Made by a program: the position numbers and the translations under genes | Notes under the pieces: model-generated | What the model was told of the DNA's origin: nothing | What the model saw: only the letters and a program-made list of their open reading frames with translations | The model's database searches: none | Shown: one piece after another, positions 2,312 to 64,000 of the stretch | How the letters are laid out: each line of letters opens with the position of its first letter | Position numbering within the stretch: position 1 is the first letter of the stretch | Assembly (NCBI GenBank): GCA_963781885.1 | Contig: CAWAHW010000004.1 | Coordinates: 672,001 to 736,000, forward strand | Direction: 5' to 3' | Origin: an uncultured Spirochaetota bacterium | Lineage (GTDB): Bacteria; Spirochaetota; Spirochaetia; SZUA-6; Fen-1364 | DNA length: 64,000 bases

Positions 2312-2339
2312 CCTTTTCGACAGACAACGGAGGCATCAC

Positions 2340-6680: not shown

Positions 6681-6703
6681 TCCATTGGCCTCTCCATATT
6701 AAT

Positions 6704-7241: not shown

Positions 7242-7250
7242 GAGAAACAC

Positions 7251-40599: not shown

Positions 40600-40673
40600 G
40601 CCCCAGTAGCTCAGCTGGATAGAGCGACGGTTTCCTAAACCGTAGGTCAGATGTTCGAGTCATCCCTGGGGCA
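40600..40673 (+). tRNA. tRNA-Arg(CCT), no encoded CCA
   Basis: Acceptor GCCCCAG/CTGGGGC, D-arm GCTC/GAGC, anticodon arm ACGGT-TTCCTAA-ACCGT, T-loop TTCGAGT. Confidence 0.95.
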
Positions 40674-40785: not shown

Positions 40786-42240
40786 ATGCGCCACGATCAG
40801 TTCTCTTTGCATCGCCGCGGCGGAATTTGGTATGTGCAATTCTACAATCCACACACGCACCGATATCTTACGGCGCGCTCCACCGCAGAGTCCAACCGGA
40901 ACGCTGCCCTTCTGAAGGTCGCAGCTTGGACACGAGACGGGGTGCCCGATTCATCCCGCGGCGCCCGGCGGCTGCGGGAGCTGCTGGACCTCGACTTGGC
41001 AATTTCCATCATCCGAAGCGCACCGCTCACCGTTGATGACGCCGGCAGGATAGTTCAGGCTTTGAAGGATCGCGACTTGATACGAGACGCAACGGTAGGT
41101 ACCGGCCCTGTGTCGGAACCCCTGATCACCTTTCTTGAGCGTTTCTGGGACTATGAACAGTCGCCATATGTGCGAGAGAGAGTTGCTCATGGCCAGCGAA
41201 TCAGCCGCCGCCATTGCCGCGAGGCGAGCATCCGGCTTGAGTGCTACTGGAAGCCGTACTTCGGGAAAGACAAGGCACTTTCGGAAGTCCGCAAGTCTGA
41301 CATCAACACCTTCTCCCTATGGCTGAAGCAAGACAAGGGGCTTATGGGTACCACTGTGAACAATGTCCTTTCGGCGGGGACGGTTCCCCTCCGCTGGGCG
41401 GCAAGAAACGAGGTCATCTCAAGGAACCCAGCTGAGGGACTCATGGGCTTCTCGGGCAAACATGTGAAGCGGGGCGTCCTCACTGATTCAGAGGTCGAGC
41501 AGCTCTTCGCGCTTGCTTGGCCCGACAAGCATTCAAAGATTGCCAACATGCTGGCAATGAGCACGGGGCTCCGAGCCGGGGAAATACTCGCGCTGCAAGT
41601 TCGAGACATTGGAGATGATCGCCTCTACGTCCGCCATACGTGGAACAAATGGGATGCGTTGAAGGGCACCAAGACGGACAAGGAACGGACAGTGCCGATC
41701 ATTCCGTCAATCAAGACTTCCCTCCTCGACCTTGCACGGGGTAATCCCAACGAGGCAGGTCCGAGCACCTTCATCTTTTGGTCTGTCTCCAACCCTGAGC
41801 GGCCCATGGAGCCTGATCGCCTTATCGACGGCCTCCGTGCAGCTCTGCTGCGCCTGAAGGTAAGCGAGAGCGAAATGAAAGATAAGCCAAAGGTCAAGGC
41901 CGCGAAGGAGTACTGGAAGCGCCGTCTTGTCGTGTTTCATTCCTGGCGTCACTACTTCGCAGCACGCATGGCGGACCACCTCGACAAGAGAAAGGTCATG
42001 CTCGCCACAGGTCATTCCGACGGAGCTGTCTTCGATGCCTATGCAGACCACAGCAACGAACAGGTCTTTCACGAAGTGGAGAAAGCCGCGACCGACGTAT
42101 TTGGGAAACTTCTCCATTTTCCGGTAGTGGCAGCTGAGACGAATGATGCAGAGGAAAAAAGGTTGTCCGGGGCACGGTCGAAAAAGTTGCCGCCTCCGAG
42201 TAGCCCGAGAGGGCGGCCTCGTGCGATAGCCAGAAGTTGA
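40786..42240 (+). CDS. Tyrosine recombinase/integrase
   Basis: TGLRAGE (R), KT, FHSWRH (HxxR), TGH, Y in DAYADH. Confidence 0.92.
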   Translation: MRHDQFSLHRRGGIWYVQFYNPHTHRYLTARSTAESNRNAALLKVAAWTRDGVPDSSRGARRLRELLDLDLAISIIRSAPLTVDDAGRIVQALKDRDLIRDATVGTGPVSEPLITFLERFWDYEQSPYVRERVAHGQRISRRHCREASIRLECYWKPYFGKDKALSEVRKSDINTFSLWLKQDKGLMGTTVNNVLSAGTVPLRWAARNEVISRNPAEGLMGFSGKHVKRGVLTDSEVEQLFALAWPDKHSKIANMLAMSTGLRAGEILALQVRDIGDDRLYVRHTWNKWDALKGTKTDKERTVPIIPSIKTSLLDLARGNPNEAGPSTFIFWSVSNPERPMEPDRLIDGLRAALLRLKVSESEMKDKPKVKAAKEYWKRRLVVFHSWRHYFAARMADHLDKRKVMLATGHSDGAVFDAYADHSNEQVFHEVEKAATDVFGKLLHFPVVAAETNDAEEKRLSGARSKKLPPPSSPRGRPRAIARS

Positions 42241-42375
42241 GGGAGAGGGGGGCATTTCCCACGCATGGACGGTACCCGCTTGCCTTTGTCTATGCACTGA
42301 CCGAGTACAGTGCTATTCTCCGCAGTAACAGCCGCAAGCGTTTGCATTCCGAACAATGTGAAAGGAGAAATCACA

Positions 42376-43451
42376 ATGAAGAAGACGCTCCTTTCTTGCG
42401 CCGTGCTCGTTGCAATCATTTTCAGCTTTGTCGGCTGCTCCTCGCCAGGGGGAGAGAGAAGACGACAACGACGACAACGACGACACAGCCGAACACAACG
42501 GTCTACGTAGGCGGCGTTAACTCATCGGGAGCCGCAGGATTCTGGCATGGTGCCGTCGGCAGCAGTGACCCTAACTGGGTCACCTGCGATGCCAGCGGCG
42601 TCGGCCGAAGCGTCAACTCGATTGTAGTCTCAGGCACGACAGTCTACACATGTGGCACTGGCGCATCGGGAGCCGTCGGCTACTGGTATGGCGCAATAGG
42701 CAGCGCCACTCCCACCTGGGTCCCCTGCGATAGCAGCGGCAGTGCCAGTTCGATTGCAGTCTCGGGCACAACGGTCTACGTAGGAGGGGTGAACTCAGCG
42801 TATGCCGCGGGGTACTGGTATGGCACGGTCGGCAGTAGTAATCCCACCTGGGTTAACTGCGCAAGCGTCATCGTCGTCGGCCTCAGCAACGGCTACGTCA
42901 ATTCGATTGCACTCTCGGGCAGCACACTCTACGCAGGCGGCTATAGGCTAAATTGGGGCATCGGGTACTGGTATGGCCCAGCCGGCGGCGGCTCAAACTG
43001 GGTCACTTGCGCAAGCAGCGGCGGCGTCAGCTCGATTGCGATTTCAGGCACCACAGTCTACGCAGGAGGCGGGAACGCAGGGTATCCCGCTGGGTACTGG
43101 TATGGTGCAGCAGGCAGCCCATCATGGGTCACCTACGAGAGCAGCAGCGGCAGTGCCAGCTCGATTGCAGTCTCGGGCACAACGGTCTACGTAAGCGGCG
43201 TGAACGCATCGGGAGCCTCAGGGTACTGGCATGGCGCAACAGGCAGCACCACTCCCACTTGGGTCACCTGCGAGAGCAGCAGCGGCAGTGCCAACTCGAT
43301 TGCAGTCTCGGGCACAACGGTCTACGTATGCGGCATGAACGCGTCGGGAGCCTCAGGGTACTGGTATGGCACGGTCGGCAGTAGTAATCCCGCCTGGGTC
43401 CCCTGCGACATCGGCGGCAACGTCTACTCCATTGCAGTGGTAACCCAATAA
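42376..43451 (+). CDS. Beta-propeller repeat lipoprotein (frameshift at ~42450 between signal peptide and body)
   Basis: AAAGGAGA RBS, FVGC lipobox in one frame; Thr linker and 7 repeats of SIAVSGTTVY.GG...GYW.G....P.WV.C in another. Confidence 0.8.
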
Positions 43452-45221: not shown

Positions 45222-46646
45222 ATGCAATTCTATAGCGAGTGCAGACTATCTGTGCTGACTTGTCGAGTTTCGAACAGCACGGGTGCCCAGATCGCTTTCT
45301 AGCGAGATCTGCACATCTCCTTACGCCCTTTTTCAAAAGAGCCACGCTCGGGAACGGCAAAACGTATTTGCTGAGACCGCCATATCAGTTTCCCAGTTAT
45401 AGTCAACGAGCGGCATCTTAGAGCCTGTGCGAACGGCTTGTCTCGCTGCACTGCAAACGTTACGGCATTCGCGAAGTCACGCATGTGCCCCAAGGCTTTC
45501 ACGAAAGCATCGGTCATCCATTCTCCCATCACTTTGTTGGCCACGCCCGGTCCGAGGTGTGATGATTGGAATCAGCGCAATTGCTGTCGTGTCCCCTCAG
45601 GTCTTCCTGCGTGCCTTGCTTACGCATAAAAAAAGGAGAGGTTCTTCTCTTGGGCGATGCCCACCGTGCTCGTCGACCCCTCCATGACAGACCCCTCCAT
45701 GATAGGTTGACAAGGAGTAGACCGTCACTATCAAATGATCCTGTACTTGATAAAGTGGTTTTTATAAGGAAGGAATAGATGCCGAGCGAACCGCATCTTG
45801 AACACCAGACGTTGCCAATCAAGCAGCTAGTTGAGGACTACAGAACTGGTCGCATAGTAATCCCAGAGTTCCAACGAGAGTACGTTTGGCGACCGGGCAA
45901 GGCTGCTAAGTTGATTGATTCCCTTTACCGAGGATTTCCGATTTCCTCTTTACTGCTATGGCAAAGCAACGAAGAAACAAGAGCTCGTAGGGCATATCCG
46001 CGACCTCAACGATCGCCTTTGATAAACTGGCTAATTGACGGTCAGCAAAGGATAATAACTCTTTCGCGAGCGTTGAATGGAGATGAGGGAATCGACGTTG
46101 TTCTTCATCCGGAGCACGACGAATTTCGACTTGCGAATGCAGTCACGCGCAAAGATCCAAGCTGGTTCCGGGTCTCGGAGCTTTGGGATGACAGCATTTA
46201 CCGCAAGGTCAGGCACAACATAGACGGTAGAGTTGACAGTGCCAAGATAGAAGAAAAATTTGACAACGTCCGGAAAATTCTGGACTACGCTATACCCCTG
46301 GTCCGCATGGTAGACCATAGCTTCGATAACGCGGTGAACGCTTTTACTCGAATCAATACTTTAGGCGTTCGATTAAAGGCAGAGGATATCGAAAGTGCCA
46401 AAATTGCAGCGCGCCATTCGGGATTTGTTGCCGATGAAGTCGCACCCTTCCTTCATAAGCTGCACCAGCAAGGATTTCGAAGATTGAACATCATGCACCT
46501 TTTTCGTGCCTGCGCCTTTGTAGCTACGCCTGACGGTCGCAATCGAACGCCGCTCCACGAAATGAAGAAGCAAGAAGTGCTCTCAGCGTGGAAGAAGACG
46601 GAAATAGCAACTGAGAAGGCGATCGGACTTGTCAGGAGCGAGCTAG

Positions 46647-48390
46647 CCCGCATTTCTCACACCTATTATCTTGCAGATGCTGTTTGACTGGCCTGATCGA
46701 GAGATTCTTCGTTATTGGTGCGCAATAGGGCTGTTCCGAGGACCATCGGTGGCTGATTGAGAGAACGGAATTAAGACGTCGTTAGTGTATGCATAGCCCC
46801 AACTGGCTTTGTAGTTGGTTTTGGGCATACCTCTCCCTGAAAGCGACCTTTTCAATGCGCGCCAAGTGGGATTACTTCAACACTGCAAGCGATACGCCCG
46901 CTGAAGGTTTTCAAGAATTGTTCCAAACAGGATCTGATCGGGATAGCCGCTGGCCATGCTGATCGAAACTCGCCGCACGCTCAGGCGAACCTGCGCTCCG
47001 ATCTTCAGTAGCTTAAGCCGCATGGTTTGGCAGGTGGCTTCTGCCATTCGAGTTCCCCGAAGGCCAACACTGCGCAGTTCGTTCATGATCACGTAGGCCA
47101 GAGAGGAGAACCACAAGCGTATTTGATTCGCTCTCATCGTGGCCGAGCTTGTTCTGTCGGCAAACAGATACAATTGCTGTTCCTTGATTCGGTTTTCCAT
47201 TTCTCCACGCGCGCAGTAGATCTTTTCGTAGAGCTCCTGAGCCTGGTATTCCTCAGAGCTGAGGTTGGTAACGACGAAGCGAGGGTTCTCTCCCTTGTCC
47301 ATGTACTCCGCTTTGCCCACCACCCTTCGGCTTCGAGTCCAGCTACTGCGCGTGCGGTAGGAGAACTGGATGAACCGTCGGGATGCCCTACCCGTGGTGG
47401 CCCAATCTCGCTTGGCTTTCTTCATCGGGCGGGTGAGCTTCTTCAGGAGGCGCTTGTTTTTCGCCAGTCCCAGCAGGTATTTCACTCCATGCGTCTCGCA
47501 CCATTCCATCAGCGCCTCTCGGCAGAAGCCGCTGTCACCTCTGAGCAGGATCTTCACCAGCGGCCACTTGTGACGGATAACCTTTACTAGCCTTTCCAGC
47601 ACCTGCACGGATCCCGCGCTGGCGTCGATGTCGGCTTTCCTCAACTGCGCCCACAAAAGGTGGTCCCCGCAAAAGACATACAGGGGCAGATAGCAATAGC
47701 AGTCGTAGTATCCATGGAAGAACCGCCCCTCCTGATTGCCGTGAAGCGGGTCGTCGGTAGCGTCAAAGTCCAGAACCAACATTTCAGGCGGCTTCTTGGT
47801 GATACGAACGAAGGTATTCACGAAGAACTCTTCCAGTTCTTCCATCTCGGCGATGATCTTCTTGTATCGGGGTCGCTTGCTCAGAAGGCTGCCAGCAGTC
47901 TCCAGCCGATTGAGGGTACTCTTTCCAGCAAGAGCCTTGCCGCGATCGCGTGCATCCCGTCTATTCTTGCCCTCCACATCCTGCTTGCCGCACAACAGTG
48001 CCAGAAGGGGGTCGGCACGCAGCAGGTCATGATCGTTGAGGTCCTCGTTTCCAAAGCACAACCCATAGGTGCGCTGCGCGACCAGTTCCGCCACACTGTG
48101 TTCGACGAAGCGAGGCTTTCGCAAGTCGATGAAGCATGATGCAAACCGCGAGATGAACTGCTGACCAAATTCGATTTCCCGCAAGAGCAGCCCCCCGGCG
48201 TCGGATGTGATGTGGCCGCCATCGAATGCCGAGATGACCTTCCTGCTTCTCCATATCTTGAAATGAGAACTGCTTTGAAATACAGTGTGTCCGCATCGTT
48301 TGGCCTTTCTGTTTCTCGGTATTTTGTTTGTGGCAAAACATTTATACCGGAACGAAAGGCCATTTTCAATTCAGGTGTGAGAAATGCGGG
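46647..48390 (-). mobile_element. IS1380-family insertion sequence, 1744 bp
   Basis: 18-bp TIRs cccgcatttctcacacct / aggtgtgagaaatgcggg; CTAG duplication at 46643-46646 and 48391-48394. Confidence 0.93.
46877..48296 (-). CDS. IS1380-family DDE transposase (frameshift near 48250)
   Basis: ITSDAGGLLL, LDFDATDDPLHGNQEGRFFHGYY, RGDSGF, YCARGEMENRIKE. Confidence 0.92.
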
Positions 48391-49202
48391 CTAGGTCTTG
48401 TGGACATGAATATCCTCTGGTCCGGCGCGTTAATTGTTCCTTTGATAGCGACTTGCGCTACCATGTCGCCGCGCGACCTTGAGTCTAGGGAACTCGCCGG
48501 TTGGCTGTCGCTTGCCGCTCTTTGCCATCGATACAGCGGCGCAAGCGAGTACGCACTTGAGCAGGACTTGCGCGCATGTCGCAGCTCGGACCCCGTTGGT
48601 TCGCTCCTCACCAATTTAAGGATCATTCGCTCGCTCATAGCGCAGCCAAAAGACTTTTCTGGCGCGCTTGGAGACCGAGGTGGTATACTTGCACTTTATG
48701 TGGCTTGCATGAATCGGGGCTTGCGCGATTTCTATACCGGCGGCAAAATCCTGCTTCAAGGAAATGTCGATCAGCACCATATTCTCCCGCGTGCACAGTT
48801 TCCAAACACGAAGCGCTCCTTTGCAGACAACGTTGCAAATATCGCATTTATTACTGGCGCGGTTAACAAATCAATAGGATTGACCGGGCCCAAGGTGTAC
48901 CTAAAATCCATCAAGGCGCCAATTCTGAGAAGCCAGTGCATACCCGTAGACGATCGCCTATGGAGGATCAACCAAGCCGAGCTTTTCTGGAGAGCCCGAC
49001 GAGTACTTCTTGCGGATTCATTCAATGAGTATATTCGGAAGTCGCTCCCTCAGCGCCATCTCTGAAGGAGGCTGATACTCACATCAAGAAGAACTCTCTT
49101 CTATGTTGGATGATTCTTTGCACAGATAACTCTATCTTGTAAAGCAAGAACCCGTGCGGACCATTTTGGCGGCAGTAGGCGTTGGCGCATTGGAGCGTGA
49201 GA

Positions 49203-50173
49203 ATGGGTCCAGAACCGTTTGATCAATACAACCGCGAATCTGAAGTTGAGTTGGGCGGCGACAGGTATTTGGTGCGTGACAACGGTGCGGTGTACCGCTG
49301 GCTCAGGCCGGGTCGTCGGAGGAGCCGCTTCGACGAAACCTGGACATTTGGAAGACGAGACAAGGTGACGGGATATATGCACATTGGGACTCAGTTCGTT
49401 CACCGTATTGTCGCCTTTGCCTTTCTCGGTCGCCCTCCTTCCGACAAGCATGTTGTAGATCACATTGACACGAATGGCAGCAACAACCGTCCTGAGAACT
49501 TGCGTTGGGCAACCCGGCTGGAAAACGTGCTACGTCACCCAAGCACGCGCAAGGCGATCATCCTCGCCTACGGATCTCTTGGAGAAATTCTTTGAGGACC
49601 CCAGTGCGGCCACCGGGCTCGACCGAGGCATAGAATGGCTGCATTCTGTTTCGAAGGAGGAGGCCGAAGGCAGTCGGCGGAAACTCCAAGAGTGGGCGGA
49701 ATCCGATGGACGCCCCAAAGGCGAGGCTCTGGTCAGCAGGGTGTATGGCATTCGCCAGCCAAGCCCTCCTATTCCAAAGACAGTGCCGGACAGAGAATCA
49801 TTTCACTCCTCTCGCCCTGCAACGCCGATGGAAGACGCCGACGGCCTTTCCAAGTTGCCCCAGCGCACTCGGGCCGCACCCGCTAGCGGAGTACTTGCAG
49901 AACCTAAGTTCGGGTTCTGTCTTCACACGCGATGCGTATAAAGAAACTTCAGTAGTAGTGGCCGAACTTGGCAACGAACTGCTCAGTGTACTAGTGAGGT
50001 CAGGTAACGAGGACCCGGTAAAGCCGTTTGCCGTTACCAAGATCACAGTTGAAGACGGGAAGTTCGTGCACGAGGCCGTCGGCACGTTCTTCGACCTGGA
50101 TAGCGCAAAGCGGGCTTGCTTCGAGTTGCTTGGTATTGCGCCCCCGGGACAGATAGTTGACGATCGCCTTTAG
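49203..50173 (+). CDS. HNH endonuclease domain protein (frameshifts at ~49580 and ~49795)
   Basis: VHRIVAFAF...VDHIDTNGSNNRPENLRW; continues in two further frames. Confidence 0.75.
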
Positions 50174-50327
50174 GGGCCGCAACTTGCATCTATCGTTTGG
50201 ACCTCTCCGCCTTAACGCCTTATTTGGGTGTCAATTTGGTTCGCAGGAACTGGCAACTTGGTTTCTGATTCGGGGCAGGAGGTCAACTCCATGTTAGAAG
50301 GCGCAAATTCTGTGGGTGGAAGTGACA

Positions 50328-51453
50328 GTGAGTGAACCGTCAGACGAGTTCCAGGAGATCGCACACTGCGGCGGGAAGTTTTACGTCGACGTGCGCACAG
50401 CCCATGACGGCCACAGGCAGGCCGCATTTGGCGTGCGACACTCACGTCCTACTCCCGCAGCGTACTTCGGGATTTACGTTCTCCCGCAGGGGATTCCGAT
50501 AGGTACTTATGACCTTTTCGGCGAACCAAGGTCGCCATCTTCCGACGCCTTCCCGGTTTTCATCGGTGCTGATGCCAGGCAGATGTTCGGCCGTCAGTGT
50601 CCCGTGTGCAAAGGCTACTGGCGTTCAAGCGCTTCTCCCGAACGCTGGCCCATGACATGCGCCTACTGCGCCTTCAAGTCATCAACCCATGTCTTTTTAA
50701 CGGCAGACCAGCGGCGGTACATTCAGGCTTGCAGCGAATTGGTCCTGAAAGCGCTTGATAGTGACAAAAACGGCGAGTCCGTAATCGACATGGATGACGT
50801 CGCGGATGCGATAGGTAAGGAGGCGGCCAAGCCGCCTCTTTACTATTCGGAGCGAAGCCAACAGAACAACTTCAAGTGTCACGGATGTGGTTCCAAGACC
50901 GATATTCTAGGCCGCTATGGCTACTGCTGCAATTGTGGCATGCACAACGGCCTCAACGAACTCATCAAGGTGGTGGGCCAGGTTAGGGCTACCATCGCCT
51001 CTCCGGCGGATTACATCGCATGCCTGAAGCGCATTGTCTCCGAATTTGACAGCTATGCACGGCAGATCAAGACAACTATGTCTCCGAATCCCCATGACGC
51101 CTCGTCGCAGGTCTGAGTGGGAACGGAAGCTGTTCCATAACCTGCTGCAGCGGGCTGAGGAGCTAAAGATCGCATTCGATATAGATATCCTCAAGGGTAT
51201 TTCGGTTGACGATCAGGCCTTTGGGTCTCGCATGTTCATGCGTCGTCATGTGTACGAGCACAACGGTGGCGAAGCAGACGAAAAGTACATCGCCGAGAGT
51301 GGAGACACTTCCGTGAAGCTAAAACAGGCTCTCCGAGAGACGCAGGAATCCTCAAACAAACTTGCTGAACTCATCGCAAGGATCGGCGCTAACCTCCACA
51401 ACGGGTTTCACTCCATCTTTCCCATTGAGAAGCGGGCCGACAAGGTGTCATGA
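50328..51453 (+). CDS. Multi-Zn-ribbon protein with C-terminal HEPN-like RxxxxH motif (frameshift at ~51070)
   Basis: CPVC, CAYC, CHGC, CCNC; RHVYEHNGG. Confidence 0.7.
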
Positions 51454-51463
51454 TCTACGCGCC

Positions 51464-51579
51464 ATCTAGCAAATCGCTGAAGCATTTCGCGAAGACGCCA
51501 GATAGCCGATGGAGCGCAATCCGGGCGAACTGTTGACTTGGTTGTTGGTTCGGCGTGTCTGCTTAGCTCTATGCTATTT
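51464..51579 (+). other. Degenerate integron attC-like site
   Basis: atctagc-aaatc-gctgaagc ... gcttagc-tctat-gctattt: R''-5-L''(8) / L'(7)-5-R' geometry, 116 bp, right after a stop codon. Confidence 0.55.
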
Positions 51580-51679
51580 TTGCTCAGAGCGTTCGTGAGC
51601 ATCACGTTGCGTAGGATTGGGGTAAGTGGTAGCGTTTACTGAGAAGGAACTATCGTGGGGGACTCATCCATCCAACAAG

Positions 51680-52555
51680 ATGCAAGCATTCCGAAATTTC
51701 CTGAGTTCACTGAAGCGGAGATCGAAGGGCTGCAGTCTATGCGGGATCCCATGCCAGTCTTCTACAAGTGGTATAAGTATGTCTGCCAAGATCTGCCGCT
51801 TTGTCGTCTCCATTGAGAGAGACTCCCCGGCATTCCGAAGTGTCCCTTCACTGCATTACGCAGTCCTCGTGGGCCTCCTAAACAGGTGCTCTCGACTAAT
51901 GCTGTCTTGCCTCAAGTTATCGCAAGAAGGTTACTATGGCGAAACAACCTCTATTCTCGATCGCTGCATATTTGAGTCCGCCGTGAAGACAATGTGGCTG
52001 TGCGCGATTGGCACAGAGGATGCGTTCAGACGGTTTGTAGCGGACGGCCTAAAGACGCAGCTTCTCTACAAGCAGATGGTTGAAGACCATATTACGGATC
52101 AAGGTGGCAAGACTACACGCATGGACCAGACCACACTCGCCTCGATCGCAAGATACTTCACCGAAGTTGGAATTAGCGAGGATGAGGTCCGAACCATCCC
52201 AAAGATGCCCGATGAAGCTTCCATCATTCGGAAACTCGGGTTCCACGACATGTTCTATCTTGCAGGGCAGAGAATCGGCTCCCATCACGTTCATGGATCT
52301 TGGCCGAGCCTAATCTATCACTACGTTGGGATGAGGAACGGCGAATTCTACCCCAAGGATCACAGGAGCGAGCCGCACGTTAATCAGTTCTATTTCACAT
52401 CTCGCATCGTACTGTCTGCCTGCATGTCCTATGTGGAATACATGATCCCGCTGCCTTCTGATCGGAAGGCAATAGGTAACATCCTTAAGTACGCCCGAAG
52501 GGAGTTGGATAAGCTCCTGGCCAGCATTAGTGCAGCTGAAATGGTGCAAATCTAA
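51680..52555 (+). CDS. DUF5677-like (HEPN-related) protein (frameshifts near 5' end)
   Basis: ILDRCIFES and GSHHVHG motifs in an all-helical protein. Confidence 0.65.
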   Translation: MQAFRNFLSSLKRRSKGCSLCGIPCQSSTSGISMSAKICRFVVSIERDSPAFRSVPSLHYAVLVGLLNRCSRLMLSCLKLSQEGYYGETTSILDRCIFESAVKTMWLCAIGTEDAFRRFVADGLKTQLLYKQMVEDHITDQGGKTTRMDQTTLASIARYFTEVGISEDEVRTIPKMPDEASIIRKLGFHDMFYLAGQRIGSHHVHGSWPSLIYHYVGMRNGEFYPKDHRSEPHVNQFYFTSRIVLSACMSYVEYMIPLPSDRKAIGNILKYARRELDKLLASISAAEMVQI

Positions 52556-52665
52556 CAAGCCAATTGAAGGATTTATCGATAAAAGCATATAACGACATGT
52601 CATGCTGAAGCAAAATCGACGCTGTTGACGTCGGAGGCCGTTGCACGGCGGAGAGCAAGGGGGTC

Positions 52666-52899
52666 ATGTCAATGGACGTAGAGGTGAACGCCATACGGGA
52701 GTCCGACCTTCGGAAATTCCTGCTCGGTACCGACCTCCACGAGCGGATTGAGTCCGGCCTTGCCAGATGCAAGATATGCGGGAGTACCGTTCGCTGGGAC
52801 GATATCGGGGCAGTGCGGATCGAGGGCGGTGCACCCGTTGTTGTCTGCTCGAATGGCGACTGTCTTGTTGTGGCGGGGGCAAAGCAAAGAGATGGATGA
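52666..52899 (+). CDS. Small Zn-finger-like protein
   Basis: CKIC...CSNGDC; AAGGGGG RBS; overlaps the next start. Confidence 0.7.
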   Translation: MSMDVEVNAIRESDLRKFLLGTDLHERIESGLARCKICGSTVRWDDIGAVRIEGGAPVVVCSNGDCLVVAGAKQRDG

Positions 52900-54729
52900 A
52901 ATACTTGGCTATGTTCTATTCGTCCTAAAGTATGGCTGGGGCGTCATTCCGATCATTGGGATTCTCCTGCTTATCGCGAAGACCGGAGCGAATAGAGAAG
53001 CTCAAGGAAGTCGTTCTTTTTCCGTTATTTCGATTGTTTAAAGTGGGGACAAGGCAGTATATCGCCGCAACGGTCGCCTACGCAGCGACTAGCTTTCTTC
53101 AGGAAAATCTGCGCAAAGTGCTGAAATCCATTCCGAACATCCGCGTTAAGATACGGTGGGTAACCTCAGATACTGACCCTATCCTTAAGAGTGACGGTTC
53201 TCTGCTCATTTGCCTTCGCGAGACCGATGACCAAACGCGAAACATCATTGCGGCAACCCAGGCAACGCTACCGCATGTGATCTTCCCGGGGCTTCGCCCT
53301 CAAGTAGACAAGTATGCCGTTGCGTCCATAGATACTCACTATTCTTCGCAAGCTGTCGCTTGCGCTGGGCAAGTACGCATACCCGACCTTCGCAAGGTAC
53401 TTCCTCGGACCGCTCGTAGAGACCGACGATAGGGTTCGTGAGCTTTTCGGCAAGCTGGCAGAAGTTGACAACTCCGGAACCTTTGTGGCGGTGCTTCTTG
53501 AAGAGATGAATCAACTCTCCGAGCTTGCAGTTGCCAATGGCGACCAAACGAACAGAACCGACGAGGTGGTGAGTTTTATTGAGTACTTGTTGGAGGAAGC
53601 CAGGAGGGGACCCGGTGAGGAGATTCGACTTGGCTATTCCTCGCGCGCCTTCAAGGTTGGCATGATACTGCTCGCGAAAAGTTGGAAAGCACAACTCGAA
53701 GGGGTAAGGCCCTACCTCAATCGGCTAGATCGATACATTACGGGCCGGGTTCGACTCGATTTACGTCATTGCGTACTCCCAAGCATTCCAATTCTACGGC
53801 AAGCTGCTTACCGCCATTCAAGGGGACGCCCGTGTCAACCTTGTAGCCGATTCGACCGTTGCTGCAACCACCGACGGACAGCATACGCCCAGGCGCATCG
53901 CGCTGTTTAGGCGAGTCCCTATGTTTGTTGACCAGTCATTCCTTGACAAAGCCACTTCATTAGGGCTTACAGTCGGGAGTCGCGTCCGTGGCAAGGTTTT
54001 GCAGGCCGCCAAGGACCACGTACTCGTCGATGTACTCGGCTTGAACGGGATGCTCTTGCGGCGCAATTGCTCGTGGAGCCAGGTTACAGACTGCTCTGCC
54101 ATCTTCGAAGAGGAAACTGAAAAGGAGTTCGTCATCGCCAGAATGACACCGGTAGGTGTCAACTGTTGCTAACCGGCAGAACCGAAGAGTCAGACCCGTG
54201 GAGGGCTACGCAGCCTCCTGGGGTAGGGCAACGGATCCAAGTCGAGATTTACTACGCCGCGCCACATGGATGTCGCGCACTTACCGAAAACCTTTTGGAA
54301 GTGTTCATCCCTGGGGAGAGATTGATTGGCAAAATTTGCCAGAAGCCGAATTGGCAGGTATCGTCGGCAGCAGCCGGCTTGCTGAGGTCATATCGCACGA
54401 CGCCGAATCACGATTGATAATTGCAAGCGCAACCAGAACTACGGTAAAGTCCATGGCCGGCTATTGTCGCACGATACCCTCCGGGCACAACTTTCCGCGG
54501 CAGAGTGATCGGCGTTGACTATACTGCGGTGCAGGTCAGGATGCCTGGAGGCGAGGTTGGATTGCTGCCGCGGTCATCAATGTTGAGAGCCAGATTCGAG
54601 TACACGGACTTCGAAAAGACCGTCGTAGTTGGCCAAGGTTTAGATGTGGTAGTTAAAAGTATAAGCACTTCGAAGCGCAAGATTCGTCTAGAGTTACAGC
54701 GTAATCTTGAGGATGAGAGGTCACGGTAG
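52892..54729 (+). CDS. Membrane-anchored protein with three C-terminal S1 (OB-fold) domains (multiple frameshifts)
   Basis: N-terminal TM; VGSRVRGKV...VDV...SW, VGQRIQVEI...FIP.GEI, PGTTFRGRV...GLLP...VGQGLDVVV...RKIRL; DPW-type linkers as in ribosomal protein S1. Confidence 0.7.
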
Positions 54730-55318
54730 ATCTATTCGGTCTTTTTTGACCGGGCTTCAAGATAGCAAAGCGCTAGAGCTATCAGATGAAGTTCGGAACC
54801 GCAAACTGCTCATTCAAAAAGTGCTTCCCTCGAATTAGGCGCCCCGCCGCATCACAATCTGCCCGTTATCGCCAACGGCCGGCACCTTCGGTATCTGGAC
54901 CGAACCTCTCTTCAGTGTTAACCGAAGTAGGCGTGCCTTCGCCGCCGGACTTGACTGGCATGCGCGGATGAGCCGTGTCACCTAAATCGTAAGCAAGCCC
55001 AAGGGGTGGAACGGTCTAAACAAAGCGAGGATGGAACCCCCGCAATGAGTCTGCAAGAGCCGGCTCGCCCCCTGTCACCATGAAGCGAATCAGAGGAGTT
55101 CGACCTTGCAGGACATCGCAGAACCTTTGATTCTCGGTGAGCCGGGTTTTTGCTTCAATAGACATATGCGACGGGCCGGTCGTCATCAACATACACGACC
55201 GAGGCGACAAGAATCGTTGAGGGCCATGTTCGCACCCGTCACTCCGATCAAGCAAAGACTAGCTGCGAAATTGACGTCAATATGCTATAAAGAAGTCACC
55301 ATAATTGTTGGAGGATCT

Positions 55319-58300
55319 ATGCCCGCCGTCGCGGCCTCGAACCTGCCCCGGATCGGCCTTAACGCCTATCTCCGTTCGCGTTGGGGGATAATTACCAACG
55401 TTGAGCCCTTCGATACACGAGGACCCGAGGGGATTCTCCACGTCGTTACCATAGAGTACGGAGCATCTGACGGTGGCGGAGAGGACATGGTCGTCTGGGA
55501 ACGGGAAGGCGACGCACGAGTCCTCGAGATCAGCAGGATTGGAGACCTCTCGGGCACCAAACCAATGGATCCTGAGGATCATGCGGCCATGATTTCCGCG
55601 GCGCGGTGGAACGCTCTCACGCCCTTCTTGTCCCCTTTCTCCCCGAATGAGCGTGCGAGGAATCTCGCTTCCAGTCCCCTCTTTGGCGCGGTGCAGAGCG
55701 AGGACTACCAAATGGTTCCGCTCCTTCAAGCGCTGTCCATGGAGCGCATATCGCTCCTCCTTGCGGACGATGTGGGCATAGGGAAGACGATCGAGACGGG
55801 GCTTATTGTGACTGAGCTGTTGTTGAGGAGGAAGATCCGGCGCGTCCTCATCCTGACTCCCGCGAGCCTCAAGTCGCAGTGGAAGGAGGAAATGAAGGAG
55901 CGCTTTAGCCTTGTCTTCGATGTCATGGACCGCGACGAAACTGCCCGCTTCCGTCGAAGCCAGGGACTCGATGCAAATCCATGGCGGCTTCTTCCTCGAA
56001 TTATTGCGAGTTACTACTATCTCCGTCGACCGGACGTCCTCGAGCAATTCCTATCCACCTGCCGCGACGCAATAAGACCTGGCGGAGAAAGCGGTAGGCT
56101 TCCCTGGGATCTCCTCATAGTGGATGAGGCTCACAACCTCATGCCAGTTCCCTTTGGTGAGGAGTCGGACCTCACGAAGATGCTTCGGGAGATTGGACCC
56201 TACTTCGAACATAAGCTCTTCCTTACCGCAACACCGCACAATGGCCACACTAGAAGCTTTACCGGTCTTCTCGAGCTCCTTGATCCCGTTCGCTTCGTAC
56301 AGAAAAGCGAGCTTTCTGAAACAGAGCGTTCGCTCGTCAAGAACGTAGTCGTTCGGAGGCTCAAGCGTGAGATCAACGCTCAAGATCGCGCCGCAAAGCG
56401 CCCACAACGATTTGTAGATCGGAGCGTCTCGCCGGCTCCTGTATACTTGAGCCCAGCGGAGAACAGACTCTACGCAGCCTTTGATGCTTTCCGCTCGTCC
56501 ATGAAGAGGCTCGTGAGATCCGCGGGAGTCGAAAAGAACCGGGTAGGTGCCTTCGCTGTAGAGATACTGGCGAAGCGCCTTCTTCCTGCCCATTCGCCTT
56601 TGCTGATTCTTGGTTCCGGATGGTGCGGAATCTTCATGTTGAAACGGACATTGGTGAATCTCGGTCGTTACAGACGAGGCGGTCAATAGAGCGAAGCGAG
56701 ACCTGGATACTGAAACCGAGGACGATCAAGAGAAGACCTCCCGAGAAGGCTTTGCGAGCGCGACCGTGGGCGCCTGGCTAAAGCCCTGGGCCTCGCAGCT
56801 TAAAAGCGAGATCGATGAGATTGGCGCAGCGATCGCGGCATTAATATTGATTCCGCCGACCCAATCGAGGCGCCCGAGGACAGCAGGATCGAAAGGCTCA
56901 TTGAGACGATTGAAAGCGAACTCCGTGAGGGCGACTCCTGGCGAGACGATGAGAGGATGATTGTATTCACTGAGTACAAGACTACTTTGGACTATCTGCA
57001 ATGCGAAGCTGTGGAAGCGCTACCCCGAGGATCCAAAGCGTATAGCGCTTCTCTACGGAGGAAGTGATCCGAGCATGAATGCTAAGCGGCGAGACGAAAT
57101 CAAGCGCCGCTTCAACGACCCCGCGATCCTGTCCGTATACTTTTGGCCACGGACACCGCAAGCGAAGGCCTCAACCTCCAAGCGACAGCCCATAGAGTCT
57201 TCCACTTCGATTCCCTGGAACCCTTCGCGGCCTCGAGCAGCGGAATGGCCGCCTCGATCGTCACGGCCAGGCTCGCAATGTAGTCGTCTATCACTTCACC
57301 TGCGAACAGAACCTGGACCTGACCTTCCTTGCCGGAATCGTCGTCAAGGTTCAGCAGATTCGCGAAGATCTGGATCAATGGGGGAAGTCTTTGATCAGGG
57401 CATTTCAGCGTCGCCTCCTGGACGGAGAGGAAGTCCAGACTGTAGTTAGCGATCTGGAGCCTCGACATCCAGCGCCGTAAGGCCGAAACAATGTGCCTGT
57501 GGGAAGCTAATGCTCGGTAGATGGCGATATCGCACGATACCGTTCCGCTCTGGGCTTCACCCCAGAAGCATTCAAGCGTTCATCGATCGGGCCATGTCCG
57601 GGAAGAGCGCTCCGCCATCCGCGTCTGACAGGGCCTGAAAGCTCAGGAAGTATCGCCTCAAGCTTCCTCTGCCGGTCGACTGGAAACGTCTCATAGAGGA
57701 TGAGATAGCCGATCCTAGAAAGCAGGGCAATCCCGGCTTTAATATTCGATGGGATGGCATGCGTGGAGCAGATACATGGAAGACCTCTCTTCAAAGTGCC
57801 TGCGGACGCAAGACTCCTACATCTAGGGCATCCCCTCGTCCGGGAGGCCTTGGCCGTCTGGTCTCGACGTCGATACGAGGCCTGGGTAGACCGCAGCGGC
57901 GGCGCTGGGCCATGGACAGTTCATCGTGGGAAGTTGCCTGCCGGGGACCCGAGCAATGATCGGATTACCGTAGAAGAACTTGCCGTGAATGAGCTTCGGG
58001 AAGCATTCCATCATTGGGTACGCATCTGGGAATGCCCAATAGTGGCCGGCGCCGATGGGCGATCTGCGAATGTTGGGACGCCGCATCCTCTATCACGACG
58101 CAGGATGGAATGGATGCGACGCTTCCTCGCCGGGGGTTCCACGAGAACCTTATTAAGGGCGCGGGACATATTTATGGACATCGAGGATGATATTGCCAAG
58201 GCGTTCGCCTCGATCCGCGACAGACTTGATTCCGCACTCAAACCGCTCCTTGCCGAGGCTACTAAAGAGGAAGTTGGAAAGGAAAAGCAAAGGCTTGACG

Positions 58301-58614
58301 CACGGATCGCTGAGATCGATATCGCGATGCGAGATGCAAAAGTAGAGGCGATCGCGAAAGAGCTCGAACAACTTGTGGCGGACGGAGAGACTTGGCTCTT
58401 TGAGGAGATAACGAGGGACGAGGCGGAACGCAAACGGCGGCTTGAGGAAGAACTCGAACTCAGGAAGCGTCGTTATCGCGAGCTGCGCGAGTATCTCAAA
58501 AACGAACGGGAACGCCTTATCAAAGAGGTTCTGCCTCGCCGCTTTGCCCTTTCAGGAGGCGTACAGGCATTTCCCGTGGGAATTGAGATCATCCTTTCAG
58601 AGGTCTCGCAATGA
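55319..58614 (+). CDS. drmD: SNF2-family helicase, DISARM DrmD-like (multiple frameshifts)
   Basis: LADDVGIGKT, DEAHN, TATPHNG, and frameshifted SEGLNLQ / PWNPSR.EQRNGR.DRHGQ. Confidence 0.75.
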
Positions 58615-61600
58615 CTGACCACAACCATACCGACCAGATTTGGTGGAACTCGCTAAATCACGGGGGGCTTGTTCTATCCCCCGCGCAAGTAAGGAATCTA
58701 GACGAGGAAGTCGATAGTCTTCCGCCACTTTCCGACTACGCATATACGAAGCTCAAGAACGCCAGTCTCGCCCAAAGGGACGACTGGACAAGTCCGCCTG
58801 CCATTGTGCTTGAGGCGCTCTGGAACGTTATCCTTAGAAAGGGATCCGATGGTTGGATTAACGCGCCAGATGCAGGTTGGTCAATCGAATCAGTAACCGG
58901 GCGTATCGTAAAGCCGTGGCGTGTGTACGGCAAGGACGGACTGATCCTGCCAGTATTCCTAACGGACAAGACCGAACGTGGATCGGGGAAGCCTCTTTCA
59001 CGAAATCGACGTTTTATCGCCAGGGTCCTCGAGTGGCAAAGAAAAAAGGGCCTGCGCTTCGCCATCGCGACAAATGGGGCCCAGTGGCGTTTTATCCACG
59101 CCGGACCCGACTATGAGTCGTTCACCGAATGGGATGAAAGCCTTTGGTTCGAGAAAGGGCAGGCCGGAGCCCAGATCGACGCCTTCCGTGTCCTCTTCGC
59201 CGATCTCCCGCGGCTTTACGAGCTGGCAGCGAATGCCAAGGCAGGCCAGGGCGAACTCTCCCGGGACCTGGGAGAACGGATCAGACGGGGTGTGGAACTC
59301 CTTGTCGGGTCATCCGGAGAACGCTTCGAGGATTTCGCGAAGGATGATGACGGACGTCGGGCCGTCTACCTCGCGTCAGTCAGAATCGTTATGCGGCTCA
59401 TCGTCATCCTTTTCTCGGAAGCTCGAGGGCTCCTCCCTCGGGACAACCCGGTTTATGCAAGGAGCTATAGCCTAGAAGGTCTTCGTGACCAGTTACATAG
59501 GAGGCTGGGTCGGAAGGATGGAAGCCTTCGGAGTGGGCGGAGCGCCTGGCCGCGAGTACTGTCGCTCTTCCGCTTGGTCTATTCGGGAAGCCGACACGCG
59601 GCACTTCCGATGACAGCTTACGGCGGGGGACTTTTTGAGCCGGGAAGGGCTGAGGCCGAAGATGCCACCTCTCGGGCTTTGGCGGCTTTTGAGGATGTTG
59701 CGCGACCTCTCGCAGACGCGGACATGGCGCAACTCCTTGACCTCCTTTGTTTTGCCACCTATCGCACGCGTCAGGGCCGCGGCTCCATCTCGGTCAAGGC
59801 GCCCGTAGACTTCTCCGACTTGTCAAGCGAGTACATTGGCATACTGTACGAGGGCCTCCTCGATTTTGAGCTCAGACGAGCTGAAGCAGCCGATGCTGTG
59901 GTATTCCTAAATGCCGGCGATCAGCCAGCCCTCCCACTTTCCCGTCTTGAGGGAATGTCGGATAAGGAGATAGAAGCGCTCTTCAAGGAGCTGGTGAAGG
60001 CTGCAAAAAAAGAAAAGGTTGGAGAAGACATCGAGGAAGAAGATCCTTCCGCGGACGCGGACACTTCGGAGGATGAAGAGGGCGCCGAGGTCGAAGCCGC
60101 GGGAGGGAATGACGAAGAAGTCCCGGAACCGGTTGAGGATGAGGACGATGAAGCTCCAATTGATGAGCGGTCCGCCGAAGACCTCGCGGCCGATCGGATT
60201 AGGGGCTGGAAGCTTCGTGCTGCTTTTGCGCTGGAGCCTAAAGAAGCGCAAGACTGAATCCGACGCAAGCTTTCAGGAGCGGATAGAGCGAGCGACGCGA
60301 TCCGTGAGTATCCGTGATGTCCTACCTGGCGAGTGGTATCTCGTGCGCTGGGGCGGGACGCGGAAAGGCTCCGGTACTTTCTACACGCCTCCGGGCCTCG
60401 TAGCGCCGACAGTGCGACGGACACTCGAGCCCATTCTCTATGAAGTGAGTGGCAAGGCGAAACGGCCGAAGATACCCGAAGCCATCCTTTCCCTCAAGGT
60501 CGCGGACATCGCAATGGGTTCAGGCTCTTTTCTCGTCGGGGCTCTTCGGGAGATAGCGGATGCTCTTCTTGAAAGCCTCTATCATTCACCGGCGACTATC
60601 CTCGCGCGAGGACGGTACAATCTGCCGCCTTGCGGACGGCGGCGATGCGGGAATCATGGATGACATTATCCCTCTCCCCCAGAGCCATGACGCCTTTGAA
60701 GATCGCCTTCGCGGCAGGCTCAAGCGCCATATTGCTGAACGCTGCATCTATGGTGTTGATATCGATCCCCTTGCGGTGGAACTCGCCCGCCTTGCTCTCT
60801 GGGTAGAGACAATGGACTACGAGCTTCCCTTCACCTTTCTGGACCACAAGCTCAAGGTCGGGAACAGTCTCGTCGGCTGTCGCTTCTCGTGGCTTGGGCA
60901 TTATCCGCTCAATGCGTGGAGCAGAGAAGGCCCTGATAAAGAACACCCTTGGACAAAGGCGTACAAAGAGCTTTTGAACGGGAGCGTGAAGCCGTCGATC
61001 TGTACCTGGCTCGAGGCAGAGCAGGGACAGATTCTCATGTTTCAGGAGTACACGGCCCTGCGGAGCAAGGTCCACACGGAGGGCATGGCTGCCTTTGCCG
61101 AGCTTCATGCCCTGCCCGTATGGCAGGCGGATGAGCGACGGAAGAGTATACCACGAAAAGATAGTGGCAAACGTTGCAGTCCGCTCGCTCAAAGACCAAC
61201 TCGATCTATGGTGCGCCCTGTGGTTTTGGCCACCTGAGAAGTTGGGCGCAGCCCCATTTGCGGGCGACCTGGCGCGTCCTTCGGCTAGAGGCTCTGGAGA
61301 TTGTGCGTGAGCTTGCCCGCGAAGGAGCGCTTTTTTCCACTGGGAGCTTGAGTTCCCTGATGTGTTCACGGGGAACGCAGACGGGTAAGGCATACCTGGA
61401 TTCGACGCGATCCTGGGGAATCCGCCTTGGGACGTTTGGAAGCCGAATTCGAAAGAGTTCTTCTCCAACATCGATCCTCTGTACCGGAGCTACGGAAAGA
61501 CCGCTGCGGAGGCGAAGCAGAAAGAATATTTCGCATCCTCCGCCGCGAGAAAGGCGGAGTGGGACGGCTATCGTGACCGCTTCAAAGCCATCTCGAACTG

Positions 61601-63481
61601 GACTTCTCTTGTCCGCAATCCCTTCGGCGATCCGAATGTATCTGACAAAGGAAAGCTATCGCTAACAAAGTCGACGGTGAACAGCGAGCTCAAACATGAA
61701 ATATGGCGTTCCGCTCGAAGGCGGGCTGTTGGCTACGTTGATCCAGCGCCACTCTTCTCTCGGCAGGGAGGCGGCGATGTGAACAGCTACAAGCTGTTCG
61801 TTGAGCACGCCTTCCTTCACCTGCGATCTGGCGGACGAATGGGTTACATCACCCCCAGGCGGGCATATACGCAGACTCAGGGTCGGACGAGCTGCGGGAG
61901 ATGCTTCTCAAGCGCGGATATTGGGACTGGCTCTTCGGTTTCGAGAATCGCGACAAGATCTTCCGACATTCATCGTCGCTTCAAGTTCTGTGCTTTCATA
62001 ACGGGCAAAGGGGAGACAACCGAATCCGTTCGCGTCTCTTTCATGAACCGCGCCCTCGAAGCTTGGGACACTGGGGCATCAGATCCATGACCGTGGCCCA
62101 GGTAAAAGCATTTTCTCCAAAGTCGGGATCCTTCTTGGAATCCGTGGGAAGCGCGACCTCGCGATTTTGGAGAAGATATACGGCAATCCTAACGTAGTTC
62201 TTCTGGGCGAGGAGGCGGACCAAGGATGGGGACTAAAGTATGGCACAGAATACCACATGACGAATGACGCCAAGCTTTTCCGCCTATCGCCAAGTGGGAG
62301 GAGAAAAGCTATCGCAGCGATGAGTATGGACACTGGCTCAAGGGCGATTGGCAAGCTTATACGGGTCCTGACGACAATTTGGGAAGACCCTCTGACCCTT
62401 CTCAACGCGAAGCAGGGACTGTCCTCTCACAGGATAGAAGACACATCCTCAACCTGAATAGCCTCGAAGACGTGGCGTTGCCCCTCTACCAAGGCGTCAT
62501 GATCAACCATTTCGACTTCGCGGTGAAGTCCTACGTATCCGGCGCTGGCAACCGCGCCCAGTGGGCCGAGCAGGCACGGGTCAACGACTCATCCGCCCTC
62601 AGTTCCTTATTGGAATGAGGATGAATGAATACAACTTCGGTCAAGTCAAGGTTGTTTTTAGGGCGATATCGAATGCCACAAATGAAAGAACCATGATTGC
62701 TTGCTCAATCACCGGACTTGCCATTTGGGCATTCGCTATCACGATATACAGTGCAATACGGGAATCCGTTCGCGTTCTCAGGCATGCTTTCTTCTCTTGT
62801 ATTCGACTCACTACTAAGAATCCATTTACTGGCACGAATGTAGAGCCGGTTCTTACTTGATGAAATTCCCGTAATCAAGATGGATATGGCAAAAAGCATT
62901 GGCGAGCTTTCGCAAAAGCTAAGTGCAACCCATATAGCCTTTGCATCTTGGAGCGAGACTCCTCCCTCTGCCTGGCTCACAGATCCGAATCCCGGGCGCA
63001 GGCTCGCGCTGAGCTCGACGCTCGGGTAGCACTCCTTTACGGCCTTGATGAAGATGACCTCTCCTACATTCTCTCAGACTGCGAGCACCCGGCGGACAGC
63101 CTAAGTCAGAAGGCTTTTGCTCGTGGACTCGACCCACGTGGCTTCTGGCGTGTGGACAAAGAGCTGCGGCCAGAAGAGCGTCATACAGTACGGACGCTCA
63201 GAACCTTCGAGGCGATCAAAGAAGATACACATATGGAGACTTCGGTGAAGCGGCACAACAGCATGGCCGCGGACGCTTCCAAAGAGCGTGAACTTGTCCT
63301 TGCGCATCGGAAGCTCATCGCCAGGATCAGGGGATTCGGGCTGAGAGATTTGGTACCGACGGTTCCGAAGGCAACGAAGGTAACGCCGGATCTACCTGCA
63401 AGAAGAGGCAGGGGCTGTTGTTTTGATACCCATAACTTGAGACAGGAGGATTTATGGCATCGCGCTACATTTCTTCGCTAA
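58611..63481 (+). CDS. Large N6-adenine DNA methyltransferase (DrmMI/Eco57I-like; multiple frameshifts, end uncertain)
   Basis: ATNG..WRF, YEGLLD, RKGSGTFYTPP, DIAMGSGSFL, GVDIDPLAVELA, GFDAILGNPPW (~61400-61430); ATGA overlap with the helicase. Confidence 0.8.
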
Positions 63482-64000
63482 ATGATGACGAATACAAGAA
63501 ATTGACGCAAAAGCTGCATGAGATTCAGGCAGGATCCTGCTTTATCTGTCAGAAAGCCATTGATTTGGCTATACATGAAACGAACATTGATCATATTGTT
63601 CCCCTCGCCGCAAAAGGAAAGGATGCAGAAGAGAATTTCGCCCTTGCCCACGATGCCTGCAATAAGTCAAAGCAGGATGCAAATCTCCGCATTGCTCGTG
63701 TGTTGCACCGGCTAAAAGATATTCAGGAGACCGTACAGGCAGAAGAGGGGCGTTCGGCATCTTTGAAAGACGTGCTCGCCGCCTTTGGCGGCGCTAAATA
63801 TGCGTTCAAATACCGGATCGAAGAGGACAGACTTATCTATAGTTTCGGCGATATCGGGGATACCGACATTCGGTCAACTGCTGTTATCGACAAAATTTCC
63901 AACGAAAAGACATGCTTTCTAAACGTGCCACTCGCCTACATTCATCATGATTCTATTATCAATCCGCGCGGCATCAACAGCTCGATATCTTTGCTTGTGA
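63454..64000 (+). CDS. HNH endonuclease, partial (runs off the window end; absent from the ORF track)
   Basis: AGGAGG RBS; MASRYISSL...CFICQK...IDHIVPL...N...AHDACNKSK; frame open to the end. Confidence 0.85.
   Translation, partial: MASRYISSLNDDEYKKLTQKLHEIQAGSCFICQKAIDLAIHETNIDHIVPLAAKGKDAEENFALAHDACNKSKQDANLRIARVLHRLKDIQETVQAEEGRSASLKDVLAAFGGAKYAFKYRIEEDRLIYSFGDIGDTDIRSTAVIDKISNEKTCFLNVPLAYIHHDSIINPRGINSSISLLV

Follow-up and report, generated by a model that had tools for sequence, protein, structure and literature searches.

The question raised by this locus is what its two overlapping genes do and whether they belong together. They lie at positions 52666-54729 of a 64,000-nt stretch (the window, meaning the whole stretch of DNA analysed here) from a 4.64-Mb, 7-contig metagenome-assembled genome of an uncultured Spirochaetota bacterium. 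A first-pass annotation, made from the sequence without database searches, had taken them for a new anti-phage defence system composed of a small zinc-finger protein and a membrane-anchored protein with three S1 domains. We propose with moderate confidence that the locus is an undescribed mobile two-gene conflict module, either an abortive-infection-type anti-phage defence or a toxin-antitoxin-like pair, and judged by its sequence relationships it is a credible new phage-defence candidate. Predicted models suggest that the conserved core consists of a mostly acidic zinc-ribbon protein and a single-pass inner-membrane protein with helical and Alba-like domains. The features of the window copy are as follows.

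52666-52899, + strand: small gene, a 77-aa four-cysteine open reading frame (ORF) of zinc-ribbon type, with its frame intact.
52892-54729, + strand: large gene, about 611 aa on read-through, with six 1-nt frameshifts in the window copy.
52892-52990, + strand: N-terminal membrane anchor of the large protein, a short acidic tip, probably external, then one hydrophobic helix.
52990-53625 (approximate), + strand: helical domain that includes a small beta-sheet (residues 33-245, approximately), with no family match.
53627-53925 (approximate, transferred by alignment), + strand: predicted Alba-like (IF3-C-like) nucleic-acid-binding domain, about residues 246-344.
53957-54726, + strand: three S1-type OB folds in tandem, joined by DPW-type linkers and collinear with bS1 domains 3-5.

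The small CxxC protein and its overlap with the start of the large gene stand as first described. The stop codon end of the small gene overlaps the large-gene ATG at 52892, the overlap being 8 nt, and in relatives (loci numbered with L) the two genes meet at TAATG (L003, L008 and L009) or at ATGA (L010). The cysteines of the window ORF (Cys35, Cys38, Cys61 and Cys66) form the pattern CxxC...C....C and, together with D14 and G48, are invariant in an alignment of 15 small-protein sequences; a net negative charge is found in 12 of 15 small-protein homologues. A hidden Markov model (HMM) of the small protein, built on five seed sequences, scores the window protein at E 4e-34, and there is no above-cutoff match to it in Pfam, NCBIfam, PHROGs or PADLOC. 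Public sources label it 'hypothetical'.

The two genes are inherited together. The first-pass annotation had proposed two-gene synteny in homologues as a check, and the small gene, recognised with the HMM, is directly upstream of the large gene in all 14 database loci that include the N-terminus and upstream DNA; it is also upstream in L046 (genome G429, a short form of the large protein; E 2.7e-15), L051, L052 and L053. In all, the arrangement holds for 18 of 18 related loci in at least four phyla, with the window as an extra case, and the count is made without 11 loci in which the N-terminus or upstream DNA is missing (L005, L014, L017, L019-L023 and L025-L027). Zixibacteria, Nitrospirota, Melioribacter and Ignavibacteriaceae are among the hosts of the pair. 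In 14 intact pairs, the pairwise identities of the small protein are correlated with those of the large one (r=0.78, reached by none of 2000 permutations), which, as a comparison of sequences, shows co-inheritance or shared descent and is not evidence of physical binding.

For the large protein, the first description of a membrane helix, an unassigned part of about 300 aa and three S1 folds is borne out by Pfam S1 matches and by models of homologues, and the region of about 330 aa ahead of the S1 array has no Pfam match. Three-frame translation places a short acidic tip at the gene start, followed by a hydrophobic helix. A hydrophobic 18-aa window lies within the first 70 aa of 102 of the 116 full-length-like members, and in 85 of these 102 Lys and Arg are richer after the helix than before it; because positive charges follow the membrane helix, this distribution suggests that the C-terminus and the RNA-binding parts of the large protein are cytoplasmic. 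The AlphaFold 2 (AF2) model of the 610-aa member P0002, made with a 35-sequence alignment (predicted local distance difference test, pLDDT, 86.4), begins with an N-terminal helix pair that includes the membrane helix and continues with a helical domain that holds a sheet of three strands, then a compact alpha/beta domain and lastly three OB folds, and the AF2 model of the 359-aa short-form member P0056 reaches a pLDDT of 92.6.

The earlier statement that the middle domain cannot be assigned still applies to its helical part, whereas its end is predicted to have an Alba-like fold. The helical domain has no match in Pfam, NCBIfam, PHROGs or PADLOC (window pieces B and C; P0002 and P0056), and the Foldseek comparison that had been advised for the middle part returned no Protein Data Bank (PDB) match at E<=0.001 for the model of the N-terminal part. 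Conserved N117, D192 and E204 (P0002 numbering) fall in this domain, and in a set of 60 diverse members near-invariance is seen for one Asn, one Asp and one Glu of the helical domain and for a Pro-Tyr and a Tyr of the Alba-like domain. An identity as a zincin-type hydrolase was considered for the helical domain and rejected: the structural Z of only 6-8 is under the caution threshold of the comparison tool, the HExxH motif is absent, and there is no conserved histidine in the invariant or nearly invariant columns of alignments of 35, 36 and 60 sequences.

The assignment to the Alba fold, beta-alpha-beta-alpha-beta-beta in layout, rests on the predicted models of P0056 and P0002. With VIA-align, the P0056 model superposes on 8xap_A at Z 10.9 over 79 of 81 residues (root-mean-square deviation, rmsd, 2.1), and its next matches are also Alba proteins (1nh9_A, Z 10.4; 1vm0_A, Z 10.3; 7dl8_A, Z 10.2), so that the four best of 48,161 chains for this model are Alba proteins, followed by Pop6/7 and Rpp20/25 (Z 8.5-8.6), SpoVS and IF3-C. 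Residues 246-344 of the P0002 model match 8xap_A at Z 9.4 and rmsd 1.5 by the same method. At the level of sequence, neither P0002 nor P0056 has a Pfam Alba match at E<=0.1. The best Foldseek match is at E 4e-3.

The S1-type tail is recognisable in the window itself. Pfam S1 (PF00575) matches 54448-54726 with 26.9 bits (cutoff 22) and, weakly, 53732-54169 (E 0.026), and the intact homologues P0002, P0003, P0005 and P0007 score 44-70 bits; in NCBIfam, PHROGs and PADLOC the window pieces find nothing besides S1-type matches. Residues 340-602 of P0002 align with residues 169-432 of the bS1 chain 6h4n_y (557 aa; E 3.4e-14), and against the NCBIfam rpsA model (TIGR00717) P0002 matches positions 178-429 only (E 1.7e-27), a span that we take to be domains 3-5. 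Domains 3-5 (D3-D5) are the mRNA-binding core of S1 and domains 1-2 its ribosome-binding part. The OB folds match 9gut_B at E 1.6e-20 (Foldseek) and 7a05, which holds S1 D3-D4, at Z 14.3 (VIA; rmsd 5.3, 168 residues aligned), and the probable source of the tail is the mRNA-binding set of domains 3-5 in ribosomal protein S1.

This tail is one of several. One 138-aa piece, used in an exhaustive search without profiles, brings up 180 family representatives at E<=1e-3; an initial word-index search with piece C had given no longer relatives, a blank that was due to the method. Window piece B has no related loci among genome contigs, and the ESM Atlas yields no usable match. The lengths of 150 listed members include 43 of 350-400 aa, 39 of 600-650 aa and nine of 800-900 aa. 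The tails of 25 members of odd length are of S1 type in 15, KH_5 (NusA-type) in six, OST-HTH/LOTUS in one and C2H2 in one, with nothing recognisable in two; P0092 has a weak KH match and P0056 lacks the tail. Every identifiable tail type is a nucleic-acid-binding module, and S1, KH and LOTUS modules mainly bind RNA. The S1 array is not the core of the system: the 368-aa form at L046 is without S1 domains and keeps its zinc-ribbon partner, and KH, LOTUS and C2H2 tails occur elsewhere. Matches to the tail were not counted as membership, and these make up 14 of the 16 matches (E 1e-5 to 1e-7) in a scan of 400 genomes of the phylum; L007 (Thermosipho), whose 25% identity is confined to residues 467-601, was set aside as a generic S1 protein. 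The large protein appears in public sources as 'hypothetical', 'predicted RNA-binding protein with RPS1 domain' or 'ribosomal protein S1'; the last is a misnomer for members of this family, and the public records that carry it are worth correcting.

The distribution of the pair is patchy. The gene is present in none of 60 close relatives (search with piece C), in one of 400 other genomes from the phylum to which the window belongs and, in the class around the Melioribacter-type genome of L004, in three of 400 other genomes. At L046 (G429:C2:288000-307000) a repeat of about 165 nt and of attC type is present in about 10 copies downstream of a tyrosine recombinase, the short-form pair alone fills the interval between two of these copies, and one of the flanking repeats passes an attC core-site and folding test. 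An integron integrase (TIGR02249, 422 bits, cutoff 265) precedes the pair in L004, and L008 has one attC-like candidate downstream of the pair. Integron cassettes are described as carrying phage-defence systems (10.1101/2024.07.02.601719). The short form has a clear homologue (E 6e-26, TM 0.84) in a 346-aa protein of a Siphoviridae sp. phage contig. Together with the synteny, these arrangements support the view that the pair is a self-contained, co-inherited and horizontally mobile two-gene unit. The units of the integron-like L046 array carry a ParE-type pair and the zinc-ribbon/membrane pair described here, and one 8.7-kb block has a KwaB-like gene, Vsr plus Dcm and a NurA/HerA pair.

The window copy is set differently. 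Its GC content is about 66% up to about 44 kb and then 50-57%; a tRNA-Arg(CCT) gene lies at 40600-40673, and the low-GC stretch starts shortly after it and runs for at least 60 kb (into L054 and L055). This region looks like a large tRNA-linked genomic island. The attC-like remnants that had been reported on either side of the pair could not be recovered by core-site and fold searches or by a repeat search: neither end of the gene pair has, within 400 nt, an RYYYAAC...GTTRRRY motif pair that folds stably, and no repeat family brackets the genes in 43000-64000. Features of an integron cassette are therefore absent around the window's pair and present in part in relatives. Promoter-like and terminator-like sites do not exceed the shuffled expectation. 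Three tandem units of about 130 nt, 71-87% identical, are present at 43014-43394 inside an ORF (42204-43448) that has no Pfam match.

Known defence genes adjoin the pair in 7 of 14 classified contexts, the window included, and these are the following.

Window: DrmD, DrmMI/IIG and GmrSD_N.
L006: type IV restriction endonuclease (REase).
L010: PDC-S11, SIR2 and REase-ARP.
L012: LmuA/B/C (Lamassu), AbiEii and YafQ.
L016: GmrSD.
L046: KwaB, Dcm plus Vsr, ParE and HerA.
L053: HsdM.

Five further contexts are purely housekeeping.

L002: purD and an outer membrane protein (OMP) gene.
L009: ars genes and upp.
L011: nadE, lgt and trkAH.
L017 and L052: ileS and secA.

The remaining two, L003 and L004, are ambiguous, and L051, three of whose neighbours have no PDB sequence match, is unclassified and stands outside the 14. 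The nearness of homologues to defence genes, which the first-pass annotation had proposed as a check, is thus seen in half of the contexts, and five are housekeeping only. The DISARM-like locus that had been noted beside the pair is confirmed, at 55049-63478 downstream of it, by PADLOC matches to a DrmD SNF2 helicase (E 9e-105) and to DrmMI/type IIG (E 5e-102), each of them split over several reading frames. Linkage to drm genes does not recur in the nine other loci of which selected neighbour ORFs were scanned with PADLOC (L002, L003, L006, L008, L010, L011, L012, L016 and L017); for neighbours at the remaining loci the comparison was with Pfam or PDB sequences only, and for those of L051-L053 with PDB sequences only. 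In L012 a complete Lamassu set (LmuA, LmuC and LmuB, at 96-3594) is directly upstream of the pair, with AbiEii and a YafQ toxin downstream. Of the genes upstream of the window pair that had been described as HEPN-like, the adjacent one matches Pfam DUF5677 (E 6.5e-15) and has no PDB sequence match. At 45779-48370 we also note a 302-aa ORF with the N-terminal GmrSD domain only (E 2e-26), directly followed on the opposite strand by an intact insertion sequence (IS) transposase (DDE_Tnp_1_4, E 1e-145), which looks like a type IV restriction gene truncated by IS insertion.

How such a pair might act can be sketched. We infer a conflict role, with RNA binding as its trigger or means, the anchor or helical domain as effector, and gating by the zinc ribbon. 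A plausible scenario is that the tail and the Alba-like domain would bind single-stranded RNA at the inner membrane face, the bound RNA being abundant unstructured phage transcripts or phage RNA genomes that normally recruit S1. Binding could keep this RNA from ribosomes, or could cluster the anchors and helical domains into a growth-arresting state, and the zinc-ribbon partner, co-inherited and presumably translationally coupled, would restrain or gate the activity in uninfected cells. Phage factors that hijack S1 are found among RNA-phage replicases and S1-dependent phage endoribonucleases. The most far-reaching form of the proposal is a new class of immune module in which a zinc-ribbon-gated membrane core carries interchangeable RNA-binding arrays, and in which the version seen here, a membrane-tethered and ribosome-free mimic of S1, traps phage RNA or S1-hijacking phage factors and leads to growth arrest; we regard this as speculative and rather improbable in its full form. 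The idea of an S1 decoy agrees with an array that stems from D3-D5, and it is not a general mechanism, because the short, KH and LOTUS forms keep the core and the short form keeps its partner.

Several points weigh against a conflict module that senses RNA. S1-based RNA sensing is not a universal trigger, because the short form without S1 domains retains the partner gene. There is no recognisable effector enzyme or pore domain in any member, so that the membrane-tethered effector of the first-pass annotation has no evident enzyme behind it, and the correlated identities of the two proteins speak of descent and not of contact between them. No long form was found among IMG/VR viral contigs scanned with alignment A2. 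The purely housekeeping surroundings of five of the 14 contexts count here as well. The link to defence islands is guilt by association in a small sample whose members are not phylogenetically independent, and the choice of which neighbours to call 'defence' is partly a matter of judgement.

The alternative that survives best concerns the window copy only, and holds that its frameshifts are real and that the gene is a dead remnant in a decaying defence island. The earlier description of a large gene broken by several frameshifts is correct: in three-frame translation the frame must change six times, at 1-nt indels that comprise an extra base in the window at 52982, 53334, 53741 and 54449 and a missing base at 54143 and 54312. 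Two observations argue against an intact window copy, namely that the six sites are not homopolymers and that the breaks are local, being confined to about 49-63 kb while the IS transposase, the DUF5677 gene and three ORFs farther along the island (1568, 683 and 627 aa) are unbroken. The adjacent DrmD and DrmMI/IIG genes are likewise split over several frames, and long ORFs cover 94% of the GC-rich 1-44000 and are shorter in 49001-64000.

Against real decay stand X1 and X2, Logan contigs from two peat-metagenome runs of one study that may derive from the same sample as the assembly, which differ from the window by 1-nt indels exactly at the frame changes and are free of the window's indels wherever the sites are covered. 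X1 is a single contig over 52600-54671 with 13 substitutions and six gaps (2072 bases, about 99.4% identical), and X2 consists of three contigs over most of the locus that show the first five indels and leave the sixth site uncovered; the coverage of the locus by X4 is 230 nt only, X3 yields no contig over it, and none of the sequencing runs listed for the locus is an RNA run. When the X1 differences are applied in silico they restore one open frame of 611 aa, residues 1-608 of which align with residues 1-610 of P0002 (41% identity, E 1e-168), and therefore an intact allele of the large gene exists at about 99.4% identity. For the frameshifts whose polishing had been recommended, contigs without the indels and a complete frame are thus available, at sites that are not homopolymers. 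The breaks are probably assembly errors, because six 1-nt indels, four of them insertions in the window and two deletions, stand against only 13 substitutions, a pattern that by general experience resembles long-read consensus error more than natural decay, and because comparable metagenome-assembled genomes have frameshifts even in groEL. In the Nitrospirota metagenome-assembled genome of L003, groEL is split in two frames (5728-7354) and so is the large gene of the pair, and assemblies of this kind evidently carry indel errors. The window copy is most likely intact in nature; because of the non-homopolymer sites and the local breaks, real decay is kept as an unlikely outcome that retains appreciable weight. 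Apparent pseudogenes in metagenome-assembled islands can therefore be artefacts of assembly. Elsewhere in the window, two overlapping ORFs at 50316-51453 (266 and 139 aa, in different frames, with CxxC pairs and no family match) look like the parts of a single gene broken by another frameshift.

The second alternative applies to the whole family. The pair could be purely an addiction cassette of a membrane toxin and a zinc-ribbon antitoxin, one that persists because it stabilises integron arrays and islands and that has no phage role. This agrees with the small upstream gene that overlaps a larger downstream one, with the mostly acidic character of the small partner, with the self-contained pair between attC-type repeats beside a ParE-type cassette in L046, and with lone insertions among housekeeping genes in L002, L011 and L052. 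However, neither protein matches a known toxin or antitoxin family, the swapping of RNA-binding tails resembles sensor diversification more than the behaviour of a simple toxin, and toxin-antitoxin and abortive-infection roles may coexist; addiction without any phage role is accordingly doubtful. Least probable is a non-conflict accessory role, in which a membrane-tethered RNA-binding factor localises, stabilises or hands over transcripts with the zinc ribbon as cofactor: the layout is comparable to that of membrane-bound RNA-processing proteins, all identifiable domains (Alba-like, S1, KH and LOTUS) bind nucleic acids, the five housekeeping contexts would suit it and public names cite RNA binding by an RPS1 domain or 'ribosomal protein S1', but the extremely patchy distribution (0 of 60, 1 of 400 and 3 of 400), the carriage of the pair in attC-bounded units and low-GC islands, the defence neighbours in 7 of 14 contexts and the short-form homologue in a phage contig make it a poor fit.

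If the mobile conflict module is a true defence system, it would represent a membrane-based and RNA-directed mechanism made out of part of the translation apparatus, and its modular sensor logic, with S1, KH, LOTUS and zinc-finger tails on one core, would be like the domain swapping seen in other immune proteins. The unit measures 2.1 kb (1.3 kb in the short form), is self-contained within one attC-bounded unit and has intact alleles available, which makes for a concrete and cheap experiment.

Comparison with known systems begins with the defence databases. The first-pass annotation recognised no named system of this architecture, and this agrees with PADLOC-DB v2.0.0, in which no model of a described system matches: the window pieces give only a chance-level ThsB match (E 0.015), P0002, P0003, P0005, P0007, P0072, P0084 and P0092 give none, and P0056 gives Csn2 at E 0.0076. 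No model for the core is present in PADLOC-DB v2, Pfam, NCBIfam or PHROGs, and a literature search combining S1 domain with defence or antiphage terms in the main texts of the library searched found no such system described; we have accordingly found no description of the pair's architecture.

Type II toxin-antitoxin systems are similar in that a small upstream gene and its overlap with the next gene fit what is seen here, a likeness of gene order and sequence layout. With integron-borne defence and toxin-antitoxin cassettes the family shares the attC-type repeats that bound the L046 pair and the integrase ahead of the pair in L004, whereas the window pair has no attC sites and belongs to a low-GC island that extends over at least 60 kb next to tRNA-Arg. 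The predicted Alba-like domain resembles the Alba superfamily (Alba/Sso10b, Rpp20/Rpp25 and Pop6/Pop7), with Z 10.2-10.9 to Alba proteins over almost their full length, but it occurs in a bacterial membrane protein and has no sequence-level match to that superfamily.

Ribosomal protein bS1 (rpsA) is the closest relative of the tail, the three OB folds being collinear with its residues 169-432, DPW-type linkers included. The large protein is not a full-length bS1: P0002 scores 96.2 bits against an rpsA cutoff of 577, the N-terminal ribosome-binding domains 1-2 and domain 6 are missing, and the S1 array shares its chain with a membrane anchor, a helical domain and a predicted Alba-like domain.

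AbiP, of the lactococcal AbiP/AbiC group of abortive-infection proteins, offers the closest analogy in function, and is a membrane-anchored, RNA-preferring protein in which the anchor and the binding domain are both required for abortive infection (PMC13064643). It differs in being a single small protein without a zinc-ribbon partner gene and for which no functional fold prediction is reported (PMC13064643). The likeness to AbiP/AbiC, an N-terminal transmembrane anchor followed by a cytoplasmic, RNA-preferring part in both, is one of layout only (PMC13064643), and by that layout AbiP would be the nearest functional analogue of the pair described here.

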